From a virus (Duplodnaviria; Heunggongvirae; Uroviricota; Caudoviricetes), in the IMG/VR virus record IMGVR_UViG_2908567220_000002, positions 32,001 to 96,000 of that record: a stretch of 64,000 bases of DNA; one strand, given 5' to 3'. Position numbers and translations under genes: made by a program. Of this stretch, positions 2,417 to 54,436 are shown one piece after another. The notes under the pieces were generated by a model that was given only the letters and a program-made list of their open reading frames with translations, did no database searches and was not told the DNA's origin. The number at the start of each line of letters is the position of its first letter. The stretch's first letter is position 1.

Positions 2417-2767
2417 TCAATTTTGTAAATCTTCACGCCCAGCCGCCCCCCCAGGAACGCGCTGACCGCGCACAATATTGATTTCATCAAACTGCTCGTC
2501 GTCTATGAGAAGTCCGGCATGCGTCAGCGCATCCAGTGGTGCTTTCAGAATATTGTCCAGGTCACAACGGCGCTTATCCGGTGGCTCTGCAATAATCTTT
2601 ATCGCCAGCCTTCCGGACAGGTTTAATTTCAGTCGCTGCTGGCGAACAATTAGCGCCACATCACGGCGATAACGCTCACCGGCTTTTGAAACAAAATATG
2701 TGCTGCCACGACGTCGCCAGTAGGTATTCACCGTCGGCGGGTAAGGCAAAACAAACTCTATACGCAT
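2417..2767 (-). CDS. rusA: Holliday junction resolvase RusA
   Basis: 116 aa; LPYPPTVNTYWRRRG and DLDNILKAPLDALTHAG motifs characteristic of RusA. Confidence 0.9.
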   Translation of the reverse strand: MRIEFVLPYPPTVNTYWRRRGSTYFVSKAGERYRRDVALIVRQQRLKLNLSGRLAIKIIAEPPDKRRCDLDNILKAPLDALTHAGLLIDDEQFDEINIVRGQRVPGGAAGREDLQN

Positions 2768-2779
2768 CAGTAACCTCTT

Positions 2780-3829
2780 TTACCCGAGCACGCCGGTTGC
2801 AAAGGCGTGATCAAGAAAACGAAAAATTAAATCAACCTGAGAACCATGCTTTTCTTCGAACGCCAGCGGATCCGCATGAAGTTCGTTGTGATGCTCCCGG
2901 CACAGCGGTAGCGTGAAAATATCGTGAGCTTTTGTCCCCATTCCGCCCTGAGCATGACCAATCAGGTGATGGGGATCATCAGCTGGCTTACCACAGCACG
3001 AACACGGCTGTGTCTTTACCCAGCGTGTGTATTTCTCATTGACCCAACGGCGACGTTTAGGTCGTTTCATGAAAGATTCTGGAGACTCCGGATCAACAGT
3101 GATGCTGACCACCGTCTTTTTGTGAGGCGGGTTTTGTTGCTGGTAGGCGTGGCGCAGCGGCACAATATTTTTTGTGCGCTGCTTCAGTATGCTGGTGGCG
3201 CTCTGCTCTCCCGGTACGATGTCACTTTCGCGATACACCGAGTGGATTTTTTCCGCACGTAACCCCAGAGAACGACGTAATACTGCTTCCGGTAGCGCGT
3301 CCGCCACCTGATTGCAGACCGCCCACCAGGATAATTCAGCCAAAGATAATTCACGCTCCTGCGTACCGCTTATTGCGTGACCGATGACGTCAATCATCCA
3401 TGCTGACAGGTTTTGATGAGCAAGTTGCTCGAGTGATTCGGATGTCTGGTCACGCAGCTGGTTGTCGCAGTGCCAGCACAACACCATTGCGCCGGTACCA
3501 TAACGGTGAATGACGGTTTCGCTGTGATGATAATCGCCGTGTGGCCACTGGCAGGATTTAATATGGCGCAACAGCCAGTCAGACAATGCACCAGCACCAC
3601 CAGCAGCACGAATCACCCGTGCGTTACTGAAAAACGGCAGCAATGTTTTGTCTTCCACCAGCGGCTGGCGAGCGGCGGGAACAACCCCGGACGGCAGATT
3701 ACGCATGCTTTTCGGTTCCGGCTCCACCAGTACCCGGGTATTGTGGAATACCGGCATGGATTCACGGCCCGGCTTAACGATCACCAGCCCGAGTTCCGGT
3801 ACCAGAACAGGTCGAAGTAATACCCGCAC
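2780..3829 (-). CDS. DUF968 (YdfU-like) nin-region protein
   Basis: 349 aa; C-terminal CSCCGKP...HHLIGH...CREHHNELH zinc/HNH-like motif; sits between rusA and Rem-like gene as ydfU does in Qin. Confidence 0.7.
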   Translation of the reverse strand: MRVLLRPVLVPELGLVIVKPGRESMPVFHNTRVLVEPEPKSMRNLPSGVVPAARQPLVEDKTLLPFFSNARVIRAAGGAGALSDWLLRHIKSCQWPHGDYHHSETVIHRYGTGAMVLCWHCDNQLRDQTSESLEQLAHQNLSAWMIDVIGHAISGTQERELSLAELSWWAVCNQVADALPEAVLRRSLGLRAEKIHSVYRESDIVPGEQSATSILKQRTKNIVPLRHAYQQQNPPHKKTVVSITVDPESPESFMKRPKRRRWVNEKYTRWVKTQPCSCCGKPADDPHHLIGHAQGGMGTKAHDIFTLPLCREHHNELHADPLAFEEKHGSQVDLIFRFLDHAFATGVLG

Positions 3830-3830
3830 G

Positions 3831-4103
3831 TTACCTCCAGATGCGTTGCTGGAATGTGCGGGACGGACGCGGTGGGCGTTCGGAGTAAGGAAGCCTGACG
3901 GAGATTATCCAGTGACGATAATCGAGGCTGAGGGCTTTCTTAATCTCGTATCCGTGTCTGCGGTAGCACTGAATTAGCCACTCGACCTGTTCTTCAGTAC
4001 ATGGTGGGTGTTGGTACCAGTCGGTTTTAAATGCGTGTGAACGCCGCCCATGCCGGATGGCAAGGTCGGTATCAGAATTGTGAAATTTGGTTTTGTGCGC
4101 CAT
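3831..4103 (-). CDS. Rem-like small phage protein
   Basis: 90 aa ORF between hok and DUF968, matching Qin gene order; near-identical second copy at 51421..51699. Confidence 0.5.
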   Translation of the reverse strand: MAHKTKFHNSDTDLAIRHGRRSHAFKTDWYQHPPCTEEQVEWLIQCYRRHGYEIKKALSLDYRHWIISVRLPYSERPPRPSRTFQQRIWR

Positions 4104-4174
4104 CTGTTTTCTCTGCTGGCGCAGCAGGTGTCAGGTGTTCAGGCTGACGTGCGAATTGTAAACCAGAATGCCAG

Positions 4175-4202
4175 GAAAAAACAAAACCCGCCGAAGCGGG
4201 TT
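4175..4202 (-). terminator. rho-independent terminator downstream of hok
   Basis: minus-strand hairpin AACCCGCttcgGCGGGTT followed by T-run; same element recurs downstream of hok copy 2. Confidence 0.45.
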
Positions 4203-4270
4203 AAGTGCGGGTGCGTTGAGGATGCCTGACTCATCAGAGGTGGCGAGGGATTTCTCCCTCGCCTGGTCTC

Positions 4271-4426
4271 TTACTCCTCAGGTTCGTAAGCTGTGAAGAC
4301 AGCGACCTCCGTCTGGCCGGTTCGGATTCGTACCTCGCAGAGGTCTTTCCTCGTTACCAGTGCCGTCATTATGACGGTTAAACAGATGACGATCAGGGCG
4401 ATTAACATCGCCTTTTGCTGCTTCAT
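4271..4426 (-). CDS. hokD: Hok/Gef family type I toxin (HokD/RelF-like), 51 aa
   Basis: MKQQKAMLIALIVICLTVIMTALVTRKDLCEVRIRTGQTEVAVFTAYEPEE; track ORF 4271..4483 extends upstream in frame, true start at internal Met. Confidence 0.8.
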   Translation of the reverse strand: MKQQKAMLIALIVICLTVIMTALVTRKDLCEVRIRTGQTEVAVFTAYEPEE

Positions 4427-4836
4427 AGCCTGCTTCTCCTTGCCTTTCGGCACGTAAGAGGCTAACCTAGATTTGCCGTTCATAGATTGAGCCTCAGATT
4501 AATGTATAAGCGTCTTGCAGGACGCATAATGTTAACTGGGGCTTTTCTCTATCTGCCTTTGGTGTTCATGCTTGAGGCAGATAGCCTCAAGCACCCGCAG
4601 CAATTTTACTTAACTCCCCTTTTCCCACAAATCGTTTTTATCCCTACTGGTAATGTTCTCCCGATGTGGGATTCCCACATTGGAACGAATTCAATCAGTT
4701 AAAGACTCATCAGAATCTCACCTTTCTAAGTGCCCACAGGTGAGGCATTGCAATAAAAATAGCAAACGTGTATAAAAGGAGGTAATGCATGTTTTTCCAG
4801 TCTTATCAATCCATTACTGAGAGTTAAGGGGGCGCC

Positions 4837-5631
4837 GTGGATCGGTGCGGTAATTATTTACTTAAAGATGGTCGCAGTTTAGGACAAGGGAGTTTTGGCG
4901 AAGTATTTAAGGTTGATGTCTATAACTTAACCCAGACCCACATGACCACATATGCTCGCAAATACTTTTCACCTTGCCCGGACTTTGACAAGACCGCTAT
5001 AAAAGAGTTGACTGATTTAAGACAGCGTTTTTTAGTTGAGATCAAAACACAATGCACTCTCAATAGAATAAACTATGATTCAATAGCGCCAATAGTTTTA
5101 TTTAATACAAATGGTGATAAACCTTATTTTGTTATGGAATTGGCAGAGTGTAACTTATATGAAGCCATCCGCAATGGTATGAATTACGCGGAGAGGAAGT
5201 CTGCTGTTACTCAGATTTTAAAAGGAATTATCACCATACATGAAAACAACTATATACATCGTGATTTAAAACCAGGAAACATACTTTATTATGCCGATGG
5301 AAAGTATAAAATATCTGATTTTGGTCTAGTAAAAGACAGAGATACCTTACGGGCCGAAATCAAAACAAAATTTAAGCCTAATCACATGGGCACAGATGGA
5401 TATCGAGCGCCCGAAATACATGATAGCGGTCTTTTTTCTTTTCAAAGCGACATATTTGCAGCAGGTAAAATTATCACTGATATATATCCCACAGAAAGAA
5501 GTGAAAAATTAAAAAGATTGATTGCAAAATGTTGCGCACATTGGCCTGAAGAACGATATCAAAGCACACGGGAGTTACTGGAAGATTTTTTAAAAGTGAC
5601 GGGGGAGGTAAATCATGAAGAACATAATTGA
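4837..5631 (+). CDS. Hanks-type Ser/Thr protein kinase
   Basis: 264 aa; glycine loop GQGSFGEV, catalytic loop HRDLKPGN, DFG and APE motifs; GTG start with AAGGGGG RBS. Confidence 0.85.
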   Translation: MDRCGNYLLKDGRSLGQGSFGEVFKVDVYNLTQTHMTTYARKYFSPCPDFDKTAIKELTDLRQRFLVEIKTQCTLNRINYDSIAPIVLFNTNGDKPYFVMELAECNLYEAIRNGMNYAERKSAVTQILKGIITIHENNYIHRDLKPGNILYYADGKYKISDFGLVKDRDTLRAEIKTKFKPNHMGTDGYRAPEIHDSGLFSFQSDIFAAGKIITDIYPTERSEKLKRLIAKCCAHWPEERYQSTRELLEDFLKVTGEVNHEEHN

Positions 5632-6331
5632 AATGGCATGTTTTAGCCTAAAACAACCCCAAAAAAAAGAAAATGAAGACTTTTATTTACCGCCATCTTT
5701 TGATAGCGATTTTAACATTGTCTTTGCAGTAGCTGATGGGGTTGGTTCCTCTGAACATTCAATGCTTGCATCTCATGCAGCCATTCGTGGCATTAGACAC
5801 ACGCTAGGCACTTCCTTTTTCTCAATTGAAAGTGCATTTCATTCAGCTAAAAAAGAAATTGACAATTTAGATATTAGCACTGCCACAACCTTAACAATTG
5901 TTCAGATCAAAAAAAATGAAGTGTTAATTGGTCATTCCGGTGATTGCCGAGTATACTTCAATAAAAACAACAAACTAAATCAGTTAACCACTGATCAAAC
6001 GAGATATCAAGAACTCCTTGATTCTGGTGAACATAAATTACGTAATTTAAGAAATCATAAAGAACGGCTATCTTCAGTCCTAACGAATGCTTTATCAAAT
6101 ACAACGGATTTGAATTTTGAGTTAATGTCTTTTCCGATTAGCCAGCTAATTTATAATGGCTATCTTCAACTCTATGCAATGACTGATGGTGCCTATAAGC
6201 ATTGGGATGTCAGACCAAGGTTTTCTGAGAAGACAATGCTCTCACCAACAGCTTTTGCGAGTAGTTTAAGAAAAAGGATTGAGAAAAACATAATGGATGA
6301 TTACACTTTTATAGGCGTAAAAGTAACCTAA
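5615..6331 (+). CDS. PP2C/PPM-family Ser/Thr phosphatase
   Basis: 238 aa; VADGVGS, GDCRVY and MTDGAY metal-binding motifs; GGAGG RBS; start overlaps kinase 3-prime end by 17 nt. Confidence 0.8.
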   Translation: MKNIIEMACFSLKQPQKKENEDFYLPPSFDSDFNIVFAVADGVGSSEHSMLASHAAIRGIRHTLGTSFFSIESAFHSAKKEIDNLDISTATTLTIVQIKKNEVLIGHSGDCRVYFNKNNKLNQLTTDQTRYQELLDSGEHKLRNLRNHKERLSSVLTNALSNTTDLNFELMSFPISQLIYNGYLQLYAMTDGAYKHWDVRPRFSEKTMLSPTAFASSLRKRIEKNIMDDYTFIGVKVT

Positions 6332-30504: not shown

Positions 30505-33062
30505 CGTCCACCTCCGGAGAACAGACCACCATCGCGCATCTGTGCCTGGATTTCATCACGGGCACCCTTGCGGGCCATGTCATACACCGCCTTCATCATC
30601 TGTGGACCTGGCAGACCATTCGTACCGTCGTTCTGAATCACCACGTTGTTGTTCTGCTCAAACCTGATACCCTCTGAACGCCGCATTTGCGCCGGACTTC
30701 CGGTGCCACCGACATAACCGCCGGTGGCATAGCCGCGCATCAGCCGGTAGAGATTTCCCACGCCAATCCGGCTGGTTGCCTCCTTCGTGAAGACAAATTC
30801 ACCACGGTGAACAATCCCCGCTGGCTCATATTTGCCGCCGGTTCCCGTAAATCCTCCGGTTGCAAAATGGAGTTTCGCCGCAGCGGCCTGAATGGCTGTA
30901 CCGCCTGACGCGGATGCGCCGCCACCAACAGCCCCGCCAATAGCGCTGCCGATACTCCCGACAATCCCCACCATTGCCTGCTTAAGCAGAATTTCTGTCA
31001 TCATGGACAGCACGGAACGGGTGAAGCTGCGCCAGTTCTGTTCACTGCCGGTCAGCATCGCCGCCATATTCTGCGCAATACCATCAAAGGTCTGCGTGGC
31101 AGCACTTTTAACCTGCGACATACTGTCCGTGGCACTCTCTTCCCACTCACTCCAGCCTGACCTGAGGCCTGCCATCCAGCTCCCGCGAAGCTGGTCTTCA
31201 GCCGCCCAGGTCTTTTTCTGCTCTGACATGACGCTATTCAGCGCCAGCGGATTATCGCCATACTGTTCCTTCAGGCGCTGTTCCGTGGCGTCCCGCGCTG
31301 CCTGCCGGTCAGTCAGCCCCCGGTTTTTCGCCTCAATGGCTGCCCGTTTTGCCCGTTGCTGCTGTGCGAATTTATCCGCCTGCTGCGCCAGCGCGTTCAG
31401 GTGCTCCTGATACGTGACCTTATCGCCAAGTGCAGCCAGCTGGCGTTTGTACTCCAGCGTCTCATCTTTATGCGCCAGCAGGGATTTCTCCTGTGCGGAC
31501 AGCTGGCGACGTTGCGCCGCCTCCTCCAGTACCGCGAACTGACTTTCTGCCTTCCACAAATCCCGGCGCTGCTGGCTGATTTTCTCATTCGCTCCGGCAT
31601 GCTTCTCCAGCGTCCGGAGTTCTGCCTGAAGCGTCAGCAGGGCAGCATGAGCACTGTCTTCCTGACGATCGCCCGCAGACACCTTCACGCCGGACTGTTT
31701 CGGCTTTTTCAGCGTCGCTTCATAATCCTTTTTCGCCGCCGCCATCAGCGTGTTGTAATCCGCCTGCAGGATTTTCCCGTCTTTCAGTGCCTTGTTCAGT
31801 TCTTCCTGACGGGCGGTATATTTCTCCAGCGGCGTCTGCAGCCGTTCGTAAGCCTTCTGCGCCTCTTCGGTATATTTCAGCCGTGACGCTTCGGTATCGC
31901 TCTGCTGCTGCGCATTTTTGTCCTGTTGAGTCTGCTGCTCAGCCTTCTTTCGGGCGGCTTCAAGCGCAAGACGGGCCTTTTCACGATCATCCCAGTAACG
32001 CGCCCGCGCTTCATCGTTAACAAAATAATCATCCTTGCGCAGATTCCAGATGTCGTCTGCTTTCTTAAACGCAGCCTCTGCCTTAATCAGCATCTCCTGC
32101 GCGGTATCAGGACGACCAATATCCAGCACCGCATCCCACATGGATTTGAATGCCCGCGCAGTCCTGTCTGCCCAGGTCTCCAGCGTGCCCATGTTCTCTT
32201 TCAGGCGGCGGGTCTGGTCATCAAACCCTTTCGTTGCGGCCTCGTTCGCCGCCTGCAATGCCCCGGCTTCATCGCCGGAACGCTGCAACTGAGCAACATA
32301 CGCAATCTGCTCCGCCGTCACGTTATGGAACTGGCGTGCCATCGCCGTCAGCCCCGACGTCGGGTCTGTGGTCAGCTTCCCGAAGGCTTCAGCGACCTTG
32401 TCCACCTCCACGCCGGATGCAGAGGAGAAACGCGCCACACTCTGGCTGATGGACGCAATCTGAGCCTCACCGCTTACCCCCGCCTTAACCAGTGCGCTGA
32501 GTGACTCGCTGGTCTGGTTAAACGTCAGCCCTGCCGCCTGCCCGGCTCTGGACAGGACCAGCATACGATCTGCCGTCAGTCCCGCCTGATTGCCGGAAAG
32601 GACCAGCGTTTTATTGAAATTGGACAGGGTTGAGTCACCCTGATACCAGGCATACGCCAGCGCACCGGTCGCCACCGCCAGCGAAGTGATACCAACCATC
32701 GGCAGGGTGATCGCACCGGTAAGCCCCCTGAACATGGGGATCATCCCGCCGAAGGAGTCCTTCACCTGACCACCCTGTTGCAGCAGGATGAGCCACGGAT
32801 TCTGCCCCCCTGCAAGCTGCGTGGCCACGTCGGTGAACTGCGCAGGCAGCATACGCATGGCAGCTTTATACTGCCCGACGGAAATCCCCGCTTTCTGTGC
32901 AGCCAGCGCCTGCCGGTTCATTGACTGTTCAACGACTGCCGCTGTTTTTTTCGCATCACTTTCCGTACCGGAAAAATGACGCCTGACTCTGGCCATCTGC
33001 TCGTCAAATCTGGCCGCATCCAGACTTAAATCAACGACCAGATCGCCTACCGGTTCAGCCAT
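30501..33062 (-). CDS. H: tail tape measure protein H
   Basis: 853 aa, coiled-coil rich, lambda H synteny. Confidence 0.85.
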   Translation of the reverse strand: MAEPVGDLVVDLSLDAARFDEQMARVRRHFSGTESDAKKTAAVVEQSMNRQALAAQKAGISVGQYKAAMRMLPAQFTDVATQLAGGQNPWLILLQQGGQVKDSFGGMIPMFRGLTGAITLPMVGITSLAVATGALAYAWYQGDSTLSNFNKTLVLSGNQAGLTADRMLVLSRAGQAAGLTFNQTSESLSALVKAGVSGEAQIASISQSVARFSSASGVEVDKVAEAFGKLTTDPTSGLTAMARQFHNVTAEQIAYVAQLQRSGDEAGALQAANEAATKGFDDQTRRLKENMGTLETWADRTARAFKSMWDAVLDIGRPDTAQEMLIKAEAAFKKADDIWNLRKDDYFVNDEARARYWDDREKARLALEAARKKAEQQTQQDKNAQQQSDTEASRLKYTEEAQKAYERLQTPLEKYTARQEELNKALKDGKILQADYNTLMAAAKKDYEATLKKPKQSGVKVSAGDRQEDSAHAALLTLQAELRTLEKHAGANEKISQQRRDLWKAESQFAVLEEAAQRRQLSAQEKSLLAHKDETLEYKRQLAALGDKVTYQEHLNALAQQADKFAQQQRAKRAAIEAKNRGLTDRQAARDATEQRLKEQYGDNPLALNSVMSEQKKTWAAEDQLRGSWMAGLRSGWSEWEESATDSMSQVKSAATQTFDGIAQNMAAMLTGSEQNWRSFTRSVLSMMTEILLKQAMVGIVGSIGSAIGGAVGGGASASGGTAIQAAAAKLHFATGGFTGTGGKYEPAGIVHRGEFVFTKEATSRIGVGNLYRLMRGYATGGYVGGTGSPAQMRRSEGIRFEQNNNVVIQNDGTNGLPGPQMMKAVYDMARKGARDEIQAQMRDGGLFSGGGR

Positions 33063-49989: not shown

Positions 49990-50360
49990 TTTTTGACCTG
50001 CTCTTCATGCATTATGGGGTAAATCTTCACCCCCAGACGTCCACCAGATACTGGCTGACCACGAACGATATTGATTTCATCAAACTGCTCATCGTCCATT
50101 AACACTCCCGCATGCGTCAGCGCATCCAGCGGTGCTTTCAGGATATTGTCCAGGTCGCGACGACGCTTATCCGGTGGCTCTGCAATCACCTTTATCGCCA
50201 GCCTTCCGGACAGGCTTAATTTCAGCCGCTGCTGGCGAACAATAAGCGCCACTGCCCGGCGATAACGCTCCCCGGCTTTTGATACAAAATATGTGCTGCC
50301 ACGGCGTCGCCAGTAAGTGTTCACCGTCGGCGGGTAAGGTAAAACCAAATCTATGAGCAT
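49986..50360 (-). CDS. rusA: Holliday junction resolvase RusA (copy 2)
   Basis: 124 aa, same conserved core as 2417..2767 with divergent termini. Confidence 0.9.
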   Translation of the reverse strand: MLIDLVLPYPPTVNTYWRRRGSTYFVSKAGERYRRAVALIVRQQRLKLSLSGRLAIKVIAEPPDKRRRDLDNILKAPLDALTHAGVLMDDEQFDEINIVRGQPVSGGRLGVKIYPIMHEEQVKK

Positions 50361-50372
50361 CAGTCACCTCTT

Positions 50373-51419
50373 TTACCCAAGCACGCCAGTTGCAAAGGCG
50401 TGATCAAGAAAACGAAAAATTAAATCAACCTGAGAACCATGCTTTTCTTCGAACGCCAGAGGATCCGCATGAAGCTCGTTGTGATGCTCCCGACACAGCG
50501 GTAGCGTGAAAATATCGTGAGATTTTGTCCCCATTCCGCCCTGACCATGACCAATCAGGTGATGGGGATCGTCGGCTGGCTTACCACAACACGCACACGG
50601 CTGTGTCTTCACCCAGCGTGTGTATTTCTCGTTAACCCAGCGGCGACGTTTAGGTCGTTTCATGAAAGATTCCGGAGACTCAGGATCAACGGCAATGCTG
50701 ACCACCGTCTCTTCCTGTGGCGGGTTTTGCTGGTGGGCGTGAGGCAGCGGCGCAAGATTTTTTGTGCGCTGCTTCAGTATGCTGGTGGCGGTCTGCTCTC
50801 CCGGTACGATGTCGCTTTCACGGTACATTGAGCGGATTTTTTCCGCACGCAACCCCAGCGAACGACGTAATACCGCTTCCGGTAGCGCGTCCGCCACCTG
50901 ATTGCGGACCGCCCACCAGGATAATTCAGCCAGAGATAATTCACGCTCCTGCGTACCGCTTATTGCGTGACCGATGACGTCAATCATCCATGCTGACAGG
51001 TTTTGATGAGCAAGTTGCTCGAGTGATTCGGATGTCTGGTCACGCAGCTGGTTGTCGCAGTGCCAGCACAACACCATTGCGCCGGTACCATAACGGTGAA
51101 TAACGGTTTCGCTGTGATGATAATCGCCGTGTGGCCACTGGCAGGATTTAATATTGCGCAACAGCCAGTCAGACAATGCACCAGCACCACCAGCAGCACG
51201 AATTACCCGTGCGTTACTGAAAAACGGCAGCAATGTTTTGTCTTCCACCAGCGGCTGGCGAACGGCAGGAACGACCCCGGACGGCAGATTACGCATGCTT
51301 TTCGGTTCCGGCTCCACCAGTACCCGGGTATTGTGGAATACCGGCATGGATTCACGGCCCGGCTTAACGATCACCAGCCCGAGTTCCGGTACCAGAACAG
51401 GTCGAAGTAATACCCGCAC
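50373..51419 (-). CDS. DUF968 (YdfU-like) protein (copy 2)
   Basis: 348 aa, near-identical to 2780..3829. Confidence 0.7.
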   Translation of the reverse strand: MRVLLRPVLVPELGLVIVKPGRESMPVFHNTRVLVEPEPKSMRNLPSGVVPAVRQPLVEDKTLLPFFSNARVIRAAGGAGALSDWLLRNIKSCQWPHGDYHHSETVIHRYGTGAMVLCWHCDNQLRDQTSESLEQLAHQNLSAWMIDVIGHAISGTQERELSLAELSWWAVRNQVADALPEAVLRRSLGLRAEKIRSMYRESDIVPGEQTATSILKQRTKNLAPLPHAHQQNPPQEETVVSIAVDPESPESFMKRPKRRRWVNEKYTRWVKTQPCACCGKPADDPHHLIGHGQGGMGTKSHDIFTLPLCREHHNELHADPLAFEEKHGSQVDLIFRFLDHAFATGVLG

Positions 51420-51420
51420 G

Positions 51421-51699
51421 TTACCTCCAGATGCGTTGCTGGAATGTGCGGGACGGACGCGGTGGGCGTTCGGAGTAAGGAAGCCTGACGGAGATTATCC
51501 AGTGACGATAATCGAGGCTGAGGGCTTTCTTAATCTCGTATCCGTGTCTGCGGTAGCACTGAATTAGCCACTCGGCCTGTTCTTCAGTGCATGGGGGATG
51601 CTGGAACCAGTCAGATTTGAAAGTGCGGGAACGCCGCCCGTGCCTGCTGGCAAAGACGGCAGAATCATCAGAATTGTGTAATTTGGTATCGTGCGCCAT
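51421..51699 (-). CDS. Rem-like small protein (copy 2)
   Basis: 92 aa paralog of 3831..4103. Confidence 0.5.
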   Translation of the reverse strand: MAHDTKLHNSDDSAVFASRHGRRSRTFKSDWFQHPPCTEEQAEWLIQCYRRHGYEIKKALSLDYRHWIISVRLPYSERPPRPSRTFQQRIWR

Positions 51700-51758
51700 C
51701 GGTTGTCTCTGCTGGCGCAGCAGGTGCCAGTTGTTCAGGCTGGCTCACGTATTATAAC

Positions 51759-51980
51759 TTATTCCCGAACTACCTTGAAACCGAGTCTTTCCAAGTATTC
51801 AATGAATGCCTCAACAGATAACACTACATGATCATCAGGAATTAACGCTGTGTAGGTAATACCCCCATTCTCAACGCGCACAGCATAGAGGCCATCTTCA
51901 CTAAAAATTTCACGTAATTCTTCGATTTTCATCAACAGAATCCTTCCAGATAAATAGCACTCCCCCTGTTCGGGGTCCAT
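51759..51980 (-). CDS. hypothetical small protein
   Basis: 73 aa; absent from syntenic position in prophage A. Confidence 0.45.
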   Translation of the reverse strand: MDPEQGECYLSGRILLMKIEELREIFSEDGLYAVRVENGGITYTALIPDDHVVLSVEAFIEYLERLGFKVVRE

Positions 51981-52057
51981 CCCTCTTCTCCCTGCGCGCT
52001 ACTTAAGTATTTTTGATTCTATTCTGGCACCGTCCAAAACTTCAAACACGTTGAAAA

Positions 52058-52083
52058 TAAAAACAAAAAACCCGCCGAAGCGG
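52058..52083 (-). terminator. rho-independent terminator after HTH-ImmA gene
   Basis: minus-strand hairpin CCCGCttcgGCGGG followed by T-run, just downstream of stop at 52090. Confidence 0.45.
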
Positions 52084-52089
52084 GTATAC

Positions 52090-53196
52090 TCAAACAATCT
52101 GGAAAATATTTCTTGGATTTGTAATAGGTCTGTTGATGGAGAACAACTCACGAATTAAATCTTGGCTCAAGCCAGTTTTCATAAGAATTCTTAGCCAGGT
52201 TGCATCATCCAGCATTTCAATCGCCTCGGCCAGCATGCCGGGTTCTTCAGGGCGCAAAAGTTCATCACCAGGTTCAACTCTCGTATACCCTCTGGAATTA
52301 AGATGCATATAGCCAGTTCTTGCCTGTTCCTGGGTCAATAAGCCTAATGCGCTGGCTCGATAAATACACATTTTAAGGCTGATTTTCCATCTAAGTTTAA
52401 ATTCAACCAGAGCATTCCAGTCGAATTGCTTACCTCGTATTCGTGGAAATTCTTTAATGAAAGATAACCTGGGAACTAATAAGGCGCTCGAAAAGTGATC
52501 GGCTTGTGATTCCGTAAGTTTATCACCTGTCGTTATGCCCTCATGCATTACTAAATGCCCTAATTCATGACCTAAATCAGAGCGAAATCTACATATGCTT
52601 TTTTTAACATTGTTCCTGATGATAACAGGCCTGTTATTGTGAACAGTAAAAGCATCAACACGATCATCGACTCCCGTAACATGCGCAACGATTACCCCTA
52701 AACTCTCCGCCAATTTAACCATTGATGATATAGGGCCAAGACCTAAATTCCAGGCACGGCGACAATCTTCTGCCACTCGCTCAATATCATTCGGAGTAAG
52801 TAATTCAGCCCCTGGGTGCTCCGGTATGTTAACGTCAGGAAATTCGATTTCACCTTCAACAGCAGAAATTATAATATTAAGAATCTCAGCCCTGGCCAAT
52901 ACACTATTAGTCAGCGTTTGAGTCCTGGACTTCTTACTCCGAAAATGGCAGACATCACTTTCCAGAGCGTATTTTCGTTCAGTAAAAAGAAAACTGGACT
53001 TAATCATAAGCGCTGAAGATATTAACTCAAGACATTGCTCCGATGGCCTGCACCCCTTCTCCAGTTTGCTAACGAATTGCTTTGTCTTGCCAATTTTTTC
53101 GGCTAACTCTTCACAAGAAAGCCCAACAGCCATTCTCGCTAGTTTGAGCTTATCACCCCGATACTCAGTGAAGTTATTCACCTGATGTTCCATCAC
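52090..53196 (-). CDS. XRE-family HTH fused to ImmA/IrrE-type zinc metallopeptidase
   Basis: 368 aa; N-terminal HTH LSCEELAEKIGKTKQFVSKLEKG; HEXXH motif HELGHLVMH. Confidence 0.75.
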   Translation of the reverse strand: MMEHQVNNFTEYRGDKLKLARMAVGLSCEELAEKIGKTKQFVSKLEKGCRPSEQCLELISSALMIKSSFLFTERKYALESDVCHFRSKKSRTQTLTNSVLARAEILNIIISAVEGEIEFPDVNIPEHPGAELLTPNDIERVAEDCRRAWNLGLGPISSMVKLAESLGVIVAHVTGVDDRVDAFTVHNNRPVIIRNNVKKSICRFRSDLGHELGHLVMHEGITTGDKLTESQADHFSSALLVPRLSFIKEFPRIRGKQFDWNALVEFKLRWKISLKMCIYRASALGLLTQEQARTGYMHLNSRGYTRVEPGDELLRPEEPGMLAEAIEMLDDATWLRILMKTGLSQDLIRELFSINRPITNPRNIFQIV

Positions 53197-53824
53197 TGCT
53201 CACATCCAAATCTTTATCCTTCGTACGCCGACGAAGAGGCACCTTATTAATCTCCGCTTCGTCAGGGAGTGTGTTATAATCAAGAGGCATAAGCGGCATC
53301 GATGCTGTAGATTGATGAGAAACTATACTAATCTGAGCACCATAAGTATTAAATCCAACAAGAGCTACCTCCCAACGAGGCAGTGTGGACTCTAATTCAC
53401 CATCGCCCTCTTCGGATAAAAAAGGCTCAGCTATGACTCGCCATGTAATATCTTGCTCAGCCTCAACATCACCAAACAATGAGAGCTGCTCATACTCTAC
53501 TTTATTTCGACGCAGACGATGTTTCTTTTTGGGGTTATTAATGCAATCTTTGGTAAATTGTAGCGGAACTTTATTTAAAGCAACTACATAGTCCAACCCC
53601 TTGGAAATCATCTCAAGGCCAGGAATTGCATCTTCATTTTGAATAAGATGATTTCTGACCCAATCATAAGCCCTTACACCTTCAGACCAGTTGCTGTCTA
53701 ATGCGTGCTTATGATAGTACAGCTGCTCAAGTACGTTAGCGATCTCCGCCAACAAGTGGCGAACATAGTTTTCAGCAAGATAAGGTTGAAATTCCCAACA
53801 AGGAGCTAACTGATTTTCATTCAT
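53174..53824 (-). CDS. hypothetical protein, upstream partner of HTH-ImmA gene
   Basis: 216 aa, no recognisable motif; 3-prime end overlaps start of HTH-ImmA gene by 23 nt. Confidence 0.5.
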   Translation of the reverse strand: MNENQLAPCWEFQPYLAENYVRHLLAEIANVLEQLYYHKHALDSNWSEGVRAYDWVRNHLIQNEDAIPGLEMISKGLDYVVALNKVPLQFTKDCINNPKKKHRLRRNKVEYEQLSLFGDVEAEQDITWRVIAEPFLSEEGDGELESTLPRWEVALVGFNTYGAQISIVSHQSTASMPLMPLDYNTLPDEAEINKVPLRRRTKDKDLDVSSDGTSGE

Positions 53825-53898
53825 TTCAAGTTTCGCTTTTTTTAGAATTCGTAAACCACATATTTTCGCATTTTTCTATTTTTGTCAACCAGACTAAT

Positions 53899-53920
53899 GC
53901 AAAAACCCGCCGAAGCGGGT
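53899..53920 (-). terminator. rho-independent terminator downstream of hok copy 2
   Basis: same AACCCGCttcgGCGGGTT hairpin plus T-run as at 4175..4202. Confidence 0.45.
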
Positions 53921-53989
53921 TAAGTGCGGGTGCGTTGAGGATGCCTGGCACATCAGAGGTGGCGGGAGATTACTCCCCCGCCGGGTCTC

Positions 53990-54145
53990 TTACTCCTCAG
54001 GTTCGTAAGCTGTGAAGACAGCGACCTCCGTCTGCCCGGTTCGGATTCGTACCTCGCAGAGGTCTTTCCTCGTTACCAGTGCCGTCACTATGACGGTTAA
54101 ACAGATGACGATCAGGGCGATTAGCATCGCCTTTTGCTGCTTCAT
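53990..54145 (-). CDS. hokD: Hok/Gef family type I toxin (copy 2)
   Basis: 51 aa MKQQKAMLIALIVICLTVIVTALVTRKDLCEVRIRTGQTEVAVFTAYEPEE within track ORF 53990..54202. Confidence 0.8.
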   Translation of the reverse strand: MKQQKAMLIALIVICLTVIVTALVTRKDLCEVRIRTGQTEVAVFTAYEPEE

Positions 54146-54436
54146 AGCCTGCTTCTCCTTGCCTTTCGGCACGTAAGAGGCTAACCTACGTGTGTAGAGC
54201 ATAGATATGGCCTCAGATTAATGTTAAGCGTCTTGCCGGACGCGTAATGTTAACTGGGGCTTTTCTCTATCTGCCTTTTGGTGTTCATGCCTGAGACAGA
54301 TAGCCTCAAGCACCCGCTGCAATTCTACTTAACTCTCCTTTTCCCGCAAACCGTTTTTATCCCCAGCGGCAAATCGAATACACCACCAGCGCCACCGCCA
54401 TCGCAATTCCTACCGTTGTTAATGCTTCAGGCCAGG

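Follow-up and report, generated by a model that had tools for sequence, protein, structure and literature searches.

Here we describe a two-gene cassette on the minus strand of a 64,000-nucleotide (nt) stretch of tailed-virus DNA (the window; positions 32,001 to 96,000 of IMG/VR record IMGVR_UViG_2908567220_000002), lying in the second of the two prophages, A and B, that the window holds. The cassette is probably a RosmerTA-type toxin-antitoxin (TA) moron, serving abortive infection or phage exclusion and also helping prophage retention. Its first gene, rmrT, encodes a protein of 216 amino acids (aa), and its second, rmrA, a fusion of an XRE-type helix-turn-helix (HTH) domain with an M78-type zinc peptidase; judging from the family literature, the toxin (effector) is most likely the 216-aa protein, with the fusion as its antitoxin. 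A preliminary description of this DNA had proposed a sensor-effector system of unknown function with an uncharacterised partner in an accessory hotspot—the coupling, the hotspot, and the idea of defence or sensing have held up, but "uncharacterised" and "unknown function" have not, as both genes match RmrT and RmrA profiles. The parts of the cassette are as follows.

52,070 to 52,085, minus strand: intrinsic terminator directly after rmrA (6-bp stem with 5 GC pairs, 4-nt loop, T-run)
52,090 to 53,196, minus strand: rmrA, 368 aa with a GTG start; XRE-HTH plus M78 zinc peptidase, putative antitoxin
53,174 to 53,824, minus strand: rmrT, 216-aa putative RosmerTA toxin of PADLOC family PDLC03929
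53,825 to 53,903, minus strand: 5' regulatory region of the cassette, with a -35, a -10-like stretch, and two 28-nt direct repeats read in the sequence

RosmerTA was named by Millman et al. (2022), who verified the anti-phage defence of one member, that of E. coli OLC-716 (RmrT 239 aa, RmrA 370 aa), and found a delta-rmrA mutant not to be transformable. The RmrA protein of the window carries the Pfam domains HTH_3 at residues 17-63 and Peptidase_M78 at residues 177-282, and its zinc site is intact: HELGHLVMH starts at residue 210 (H210-E-L-G-H214), and the downstream glutamate, E229, lies in ESQADHFSSALLVP. The fusion of an XRE HTH with an ImmA/IrrE-type HEXXH peptidase that had been read from the sequence is thereby confirmed. 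The protein matches 14 PADLOC RmrA models, best of all PDLC03943 (E 6e-105, residues 12-351), and shows 29% identity in an alignment of 301 aa with the verified RmrA of OLC-716 (E 2e-35), in which the two sets of zinc motifs stand in register (HELGHLV and E..AD.F.SA.L.P). It also matches the NCBIfam "spr1629 family repressor/antitoxin" model (antitox_spr1629; E 1.5e-45), scoring 156 bits, which is below the 335-bit equivalog cutoff, and the PADLOC profiles capP (E 1.6e-14) and capH (E 1.5e-4). PHROGs labels the family "transcriptional regulator", and a sequence search of solved structures gave generic HTH matches only.

The 216-aa protein had been described as lacking any recognisable motif. 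That is correct for Pfam and NCBIfam, neither of which has a match; PADLOC, however, places it in the RmrT family PDLC03929 (E 4.6e-25; residues 7-209 aligned to positions 5-195 of the 198 in the profile), and it belongs with phrog_5786 at E 8e-85. Relatives with 53-84% identity occur in Enterobacter, Buttiauxella, Serratia, Salmonella, Plesiomonas, and Xenorhabdus; an exhaustive profile search collected 69 clusters at 50% identity, mostly of proteins of about 200 aa, and every one of the 55 distant relatives that were aligned matches PDLC03929. The protein is thus a member of an RmrT family and not a common structural phage protein, a possibility that the preliminary description had left to be checked. 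Neither rmrT nor rmrA is a chance reading frame: their family matches run from E 1e-25 to 1e-123, with homologues in other genera at the identities just given.

The remote homology and structure prediction suggested for this protein have supplied the family, but no confident fold match. An AlphaFold2 (AF2) model reached a predicted local distance difference test score (pLDDT) of 62 with 13 sequences and of 70.5 with a 50-sequence alignment (predicted template modelling score 0.63). In the model, which is of moderate confidence, an alpha/beta core made up of two long helices, a sheet of three strands, a further helix, and three more strands is followed by a disordered, charged C-terminal tail; Foldseek found nothing like it in the PDB, and a sequence search of solved structures gave no match. 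A nuclease assignment was also considered, with the PD-(D/E)xK fold (alpha-beta-beta-beta-alpha-beta core, conserved D...(D/E)xK catalytic residues) in mind, but it is unsupported—no catalytic motif is conserved.

The two genes appear to be expressed together. All the minus-strand reading frames of the preliminary description (216, 368, and 73 aa) and its terminator are present where it had placed them, and so is the 23-nt overlap of rmrT and rmrA, which holds for the GTG start of rmrA. An alternative ATG at 53,193, chosen by PGAP in an identical E. coli record (RmrT WP_001004956.1, RmrA WP_000401168.1), gives a 367-aa protein and a 20-nt overlap. An overlap of 20-23 nt suggests translational coupling. 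Upstream of rmrT there is a perfect -35 hexamer, TTGACA (53,888-53,883), followed by an A/T-rich, -10-like TGcGAAAATAT (53,870-53,860); the two 28-nt direct repeats (53,864-53,891 and 53,831-53,858; 71% identical, 33-bp spacing) overlap this putative promoter. In the cassettes of Serratia and Xenorhabdus the repeats keep the motif GGTTKAC-N14-GCGAAA, and the whole region of about 80 bp 5' of rmrT is conserved although the proteins there are only 53-65% identical, which argues for a promoter/operator carried by the cassette itself; the two repeats are candidate RmrA operators. Rfam, run over the region, matched sok alone and no RNA element inside the cassette.

Taken at the level of sequence, the cassette shows every RosmerTA feature that can be looked for there: a fused XRE-HTH and M78 peptidase within the usual 360-400 aa or so, an intact HEXXH with its glutamate, an adjacent same-strand gene matching RmrT, and a single operon whose two genes co-occur. 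RosmerTA profiles are carried by PADLOC and by DefenseFinder (the latter's names, RosmerTA_RmrT and RosmerTA_RmrA, stand in the tables of Millman et al.), and those of PADLOC match both genes; with its toxin-subfamily profile already in PADLOC, the cassette is a system of an already known kind.

Co-occurrence of the two genes, another check that had been proposed, came out clearly. The other loci examined were from Xenorhabdus, Serratia (four places), Salmonella, four metagenomic or metagenome-assembled lineages, and E. coli KL53 and STEC346; in 9 of 9, rmrT lies directly 5' of a gene for an HTH plus Peptidase_M78 protein of 359-377 aa, usually overlapping it. The settings vary widely—different slots of lambdoid prophages, including a second prophage site in E. 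coli, a P4-like island, and places beside HigB or RES toxin genes or integrase/resolvase genes—and since the genes are nonetheless always adjacent, the pair moves as a unit. Among 5426 complete E. coli genomes, 237 (4.4%) have the 1.8-kb cassette, always at a coverage of at least 80% and in 224 records at an identity of at least 99%, and all 237 have both genes; about 4500 E. coli genomes have the hokD/rem flanks without it. In these 237 genomes RefSeq labels the pair no more closely than "helix-turn-helix domain-containing protein" and "hypothetical protein".

Two genomes have damaged copies. In E. coli FDAARGOS_1249 (locus L017, 1889-3448) an IS5 insertion disrupts rmrT and leaves rmrA intact, as would be expected of a pair in which RmrT is toxic; in another (L018, 2340-4070) rmrT is frameshifted and rmrA fragmented. 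Among deposited phage genomes (50,697), a tblastn search with RmrT found nothing, and megablast matched the hok and rem flanks only; carriers of the cassette may be mainly cryptic or never-isolated prophages. Some distant pairs (L008, 2163-4717; L014, 1011-4280; L013, 1876-5712) have another toxin gene as neighbour (HigB-like or HEPN_RES_NTD1/RES) or are flanked by genes for an integrase and a resolvase, which suggests small TA or defence islets in environmental bacteria.

Several characterized systems have the same architecture. In the verified OLC-716 system, as in the window, the operon has two genes with the toxin first, and its RmrA is an HTH plus M78 protein of nearly equal length (370 vs 368 aa); the toxins differ, however, being matched by the PDLC03935 profile there and by PDLC03929 here. 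Makarova (2009) had earlier noted that Xre-COG2856 fusions stand in operons with toxins and abound in prophages, and predicted a TA module. Luo et al. (2015) then reported that on MGIVmi1 of Vibrio mimicus vmi480 (198 aa) is lethal and vmi470 (362 aa, HTH plus zinc peptidase) neutralises it. As described, that pair resembles the one in the window in being a tightly linked operon, in its upstream toxin, its downstream HTH plus zinc-peptidase antidote, its own promoter, and its place on a mobile element, which is a genomic island rather than a prophage. The PDLC03929 profile has 198 positions, and the family includes a 199-aa member from Vibrio fluvialis; V. mimicus had no entry in the RmrT cluster look-up and no named protein among the profile-search results.

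Two further studies extend the family. Ernits et al. (2023) found an ImmA-domain antitoxin (hub "D25") paired with many unrelated toxins, and showed that the RosmerTA of Gordonia phage Kita defends E. coli over a narrow range. Kita RmrT is an orphan toxin that depolarises the membrane, in which its C-terminal region is predicted to lie; the protein encoded in the window, in contrast, is acidic (pI 4.9) and has no transmembrane-like or hydrophobic segment (maximum KD19 0.84), and because it thus appears cytoplasmic as well as acidic it is unlikely to act as a membrane-depolarising toxin of that kind. Rousset et al. (2021) described the TA pair E101_02645/E101_02644 in a prophage of E. coli E101. 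Like spr1630/spr1629 of Streptococcus pneumoniae, it consists of a toxin and an HTH-peptidase antidote that make clpP or clpX essential, and both pairs were later called RosmerTA. The E101 proteins (WP_001179380.1 and WP_000481765.1) have other accessions than those of the window, and the divergent E. coli copies in KL53 and STEC346 also have accessions other than those of the E101 pair. Essentiality of clpX or clpP only in RosmerTA carriers has been reported for S. pneumoniae, E. coli E101, and Pectobacteriaceae, and rmrA itself is essential in three Pectobacteriaceae by transposon sequencing (Tn-seq).

More distant likenesses exist in CapH/CapP, ImmR/ImmA, and DdrO/IrrE, which share with RmrA an XRE HTH and an M78/COG2856 zinc peptidase. 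In those systems a separate repressor and protease regulate neighbouring operons, whereas in RmrA the two domains are fused and the partner is a putative toxin. A recent account of protease-activated defence modules (Evans et al. 2025) mentions neither Rosmer nor M78.

A number of results weigh against the proposed explanation. No homology could be detected between RmrT and its verified counterpart from OLC-716: BLASTP gives E 7, hhalign of a 55-sequence RmrT profile against a 22-sequence profile of the verified RmrT gives a probability of 0.6%, and the verified protein matches PDLC03935 and PDLC03932 and not PDLC03929. No experimental work on the PDLC03929 subfamily was found in the literature, and two RosmerTA homologues from Streptococcus thermophilus gave little protection. 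In PD-lambda-2 (Vassallo et al. 2022), the HTH-peptidase protein is itself toxic. The putative rmrT promoter was not called by a consensus scan with 16-18-nt spacers, its -10 being weak or ambiguous. Finally, the M78 peptidases CapP and IrrE are activated by single-stranded DNA (ssDNA), for which a C-terminal GAF domain forms a groove; the capP match of RmrA is confined to the peptidase domain (RmrA 161-284, profile 26-153 of 242), so the GAF part that forms this groove in CapP is not evident in RmrA, and an ssDNA-groove mechanism is not directly supported. The C-terminal region of RmrA is only about 85 aa long, though it may still hold a degenerate GAF-like domain.

The features of the site of insertion are these.

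51,759 to 51,980, minus strand: Rem-family gene, a 73-aa reading frame (phrog_340, E 1.8e-18); context, outside the system
52,066 to 52,085, no strand assigned: perfect 20-nt direct repeat, right copy (AAAAACCCGCCGAAGCGGGT); duplicates the hok terminator
53,901 to 53,920, no strand assigned: left copy of the perfect 20-nt repeat, the native hok terminator
53,990 to 54,145, minus strand: hokD type I toxin gene (Pfam HOK_GEF, E 2.9e-23, and a DNA match); context only
54,140 to 54,315, minus strand: sok RNA (Rfam sok, 117 bits), adjoining hokD of prophage B

The insert is a 1835-bp, low-GC moron between hokD and rem of a lambdoid E. coli prophage. A BLAST comparison of the two prophages aligns positions 2425-4146 of A with 50,019-51,742 of B and 4183-4644 of A with 53,902-54,363 of B, leaving 51,743-53,901 specific to B. 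Prophage A has a gap of 167 bp between its hok, at 4271, and a 90-aa gene that ends at 4103, with no cassette; the earlier reading that the cassette is present in prophage B only is therefore right. The GC fraction is 0.415 in the cassette and 0.53 and 0.50 in its flanks, and the two copies of the 20-nt repeat, 1835 bp apart, bracket the rmrT-rmrA insert. K-12 Qin has hokD and rem adjacent with a single copy of the terminator between them, to which both copies in the window align. The notion that this terminator is an intrinsic part of the mobile cassette was considered and rejected; the cassettes of Serratia and Xenorhabdus lack the 20-nt repeat and do not end in its sequence, and hence it looks like a copy of the hok terminator that was duplicated locally at insertion.

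The 73-aa gene had been counted as a member of the cassette, and the label "Rem-like" had been given to a 92-aa gene nearby. Both points need correcting: the 73-aa frame, a short variant, is the true Rem-family gene and belongs to the ancestral hokD-rem backbone, outside the inserted cassette, and the 92-aa gene (51,421-51,699, minus strand), beside a DUF968 gene, is a separate conserved hypothetical and not rem. Only the N-terminal part of the 73-aa frame and its upstream region align to K-12 rem DNA (BLAST, window 51,865-52,085), and PGAP calls a pseudogene fragment at the site. Prophage A lacks rem entirely.

The window has two copies of hok by DNA match, and, judged by its sequence, the type I system hok/sok that neighbours the cassette seems to be intact. 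On the far side of its own hok, prophage A carries (4837-6331, plus strand) a 264-aa eukaryotic-like Ser/Thr kinase gene overlapped by one for a PP2C-type phosphatase of 238 aa. Pfam recognises the kinase as Pkinase (E 1e-31), and the PADLOC profiles mad6, PD-T4-6, and Stk2 match it too, with E values down to 1e-37. With this kinase/phosphatase in A and RosmerTA in B, both prophages have different defence-like cargo around hok.

Such surroundings also invite a different reading, in which the pair serves addiction alone, stabilising the prophage by post-segregational killing, and takes no part in phage defence. The cassette adjoins hokD/sok, relBE lies in the same neighbourhood of K-12 Qin, distant family members stand beside HigB or RES toxin genes and integrases, and rmrA is essential in Tn-seq; the lack of any match in the deposited phage genomes would likewise fit carriers that are mostly resident or cryptic prophages. 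We nevertheless consider this unlikely: RosmerTA systems of the same architecture protected E. coli in two independent studies (OLC-716 and Kita), and the site is a known moron/defence hotspot, with a PD-T4-6/Stk2-like kinase beside the hok of prophage A. Addiction and defence are, moreover, not mutually exclusive.

A reversal of roles—the HTH-peptidase as toxic effector and the 216-aa protein as its inhibitor—is very improbable. It is modelled on PD-lambda-2, whose Xre-peptidase is toxic when overexpressed alone and is rescued by the upstream gene, and it agrees with the first prediction of COG2856 as the toxin by Makarova (2009). In vmi480/470 and OLC-716, however, which match the cassette in gene order and protein sizes, toxicity comes from the upstream protein and the HTH-peptidase is the antidote; stand-alone COG2856 proteins are non-toxic in S. 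pneumoniae or E. coli, and the natural IS5 insertion strikes rmrT and spares rmrA. PD-lambda-2 itself is built differently, with three genes of which the first is HigB-like and the third P4-antitoxin-like, whereas in the window two genes are followed by a terminator with no third gene; RmrT matches neither HigB nor any other Pfam family, and PADLOC reports no match to PD-lambda-2.

It is scarcely credible that the fusion is an ImmR/ImmA-like, self-cleaving repressor of prophage induction or immunity with the 216-aa gene as a co-transcribed passenger, for although the pairing of M78 with XRE follows the logic of ImmA/ImmR, IrrE/DdrO, and CapP/CapH, and PHROGs annotates the RmrA family as a regulator, the pair moves as a unit among unrelated prophage sites and islands outside prophages, bringing along a conserved promoter of its own (and, in the window, having a terminator after rmrA); it is missing from prophage A and from thousands of hokD-rem prophage regions of E. 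coli, so that it is not core prophage regulation, and the prophage in the identical E. coli record has a racR-like repressor region of its own.

If the cassette is a RosmerTA system, as we think probable, it might work in the following way. Bound to the pair of 28-nt repeats that lie over the promoter, RmrA would repress its own operon, and it would keep RmrT harmless through its peptidase domain together with host ClpXP, RmrT being bound, clipped, and/or handed over for degradation; that clpX or clpP is essential only in RosmerTA carriers suggests that ClpXP and the RmrA peptidase remove or inactivate RmrT. Infection would upset this balance, possibly through a phage factor, through a signal of ssDNA or DNA damage that is sensed by the M78 domain (as in CapP, IrrE, and ImmA), or through loss of RmrA or ClpXP activity; by analogy with CapP and IrrE, a phage-induced signal may alter the activity or stability of RmrA and release RmrT. 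Freed RmrT would then stop growth before the phage cycle ends. More tentatively, we propose that the RmrT of the PDLC03929 subfamily could be a soluble toxin with a fold and target new among TA toxins, which would be neutralised through clipping by RmrA and degradation by ClpXP instead of by binding alone, and that phages might trigger the system by interfering with this relay.

The cassette does not represent a new kind of system; its value lies in annotation and context. In lambdoid prophages, the region from hok to rem emerges as a site where toxin and defence cargo is exchanged, with RosmerTA, the kinase/phosphatase pair, and, in K-12 Qin, relBE as its occupants. If the proteolytic relay is true, RmrA would count as a "type II-like" antitoxin that acts as an enzyme, and the family would offer a tractable model in E. 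coli.

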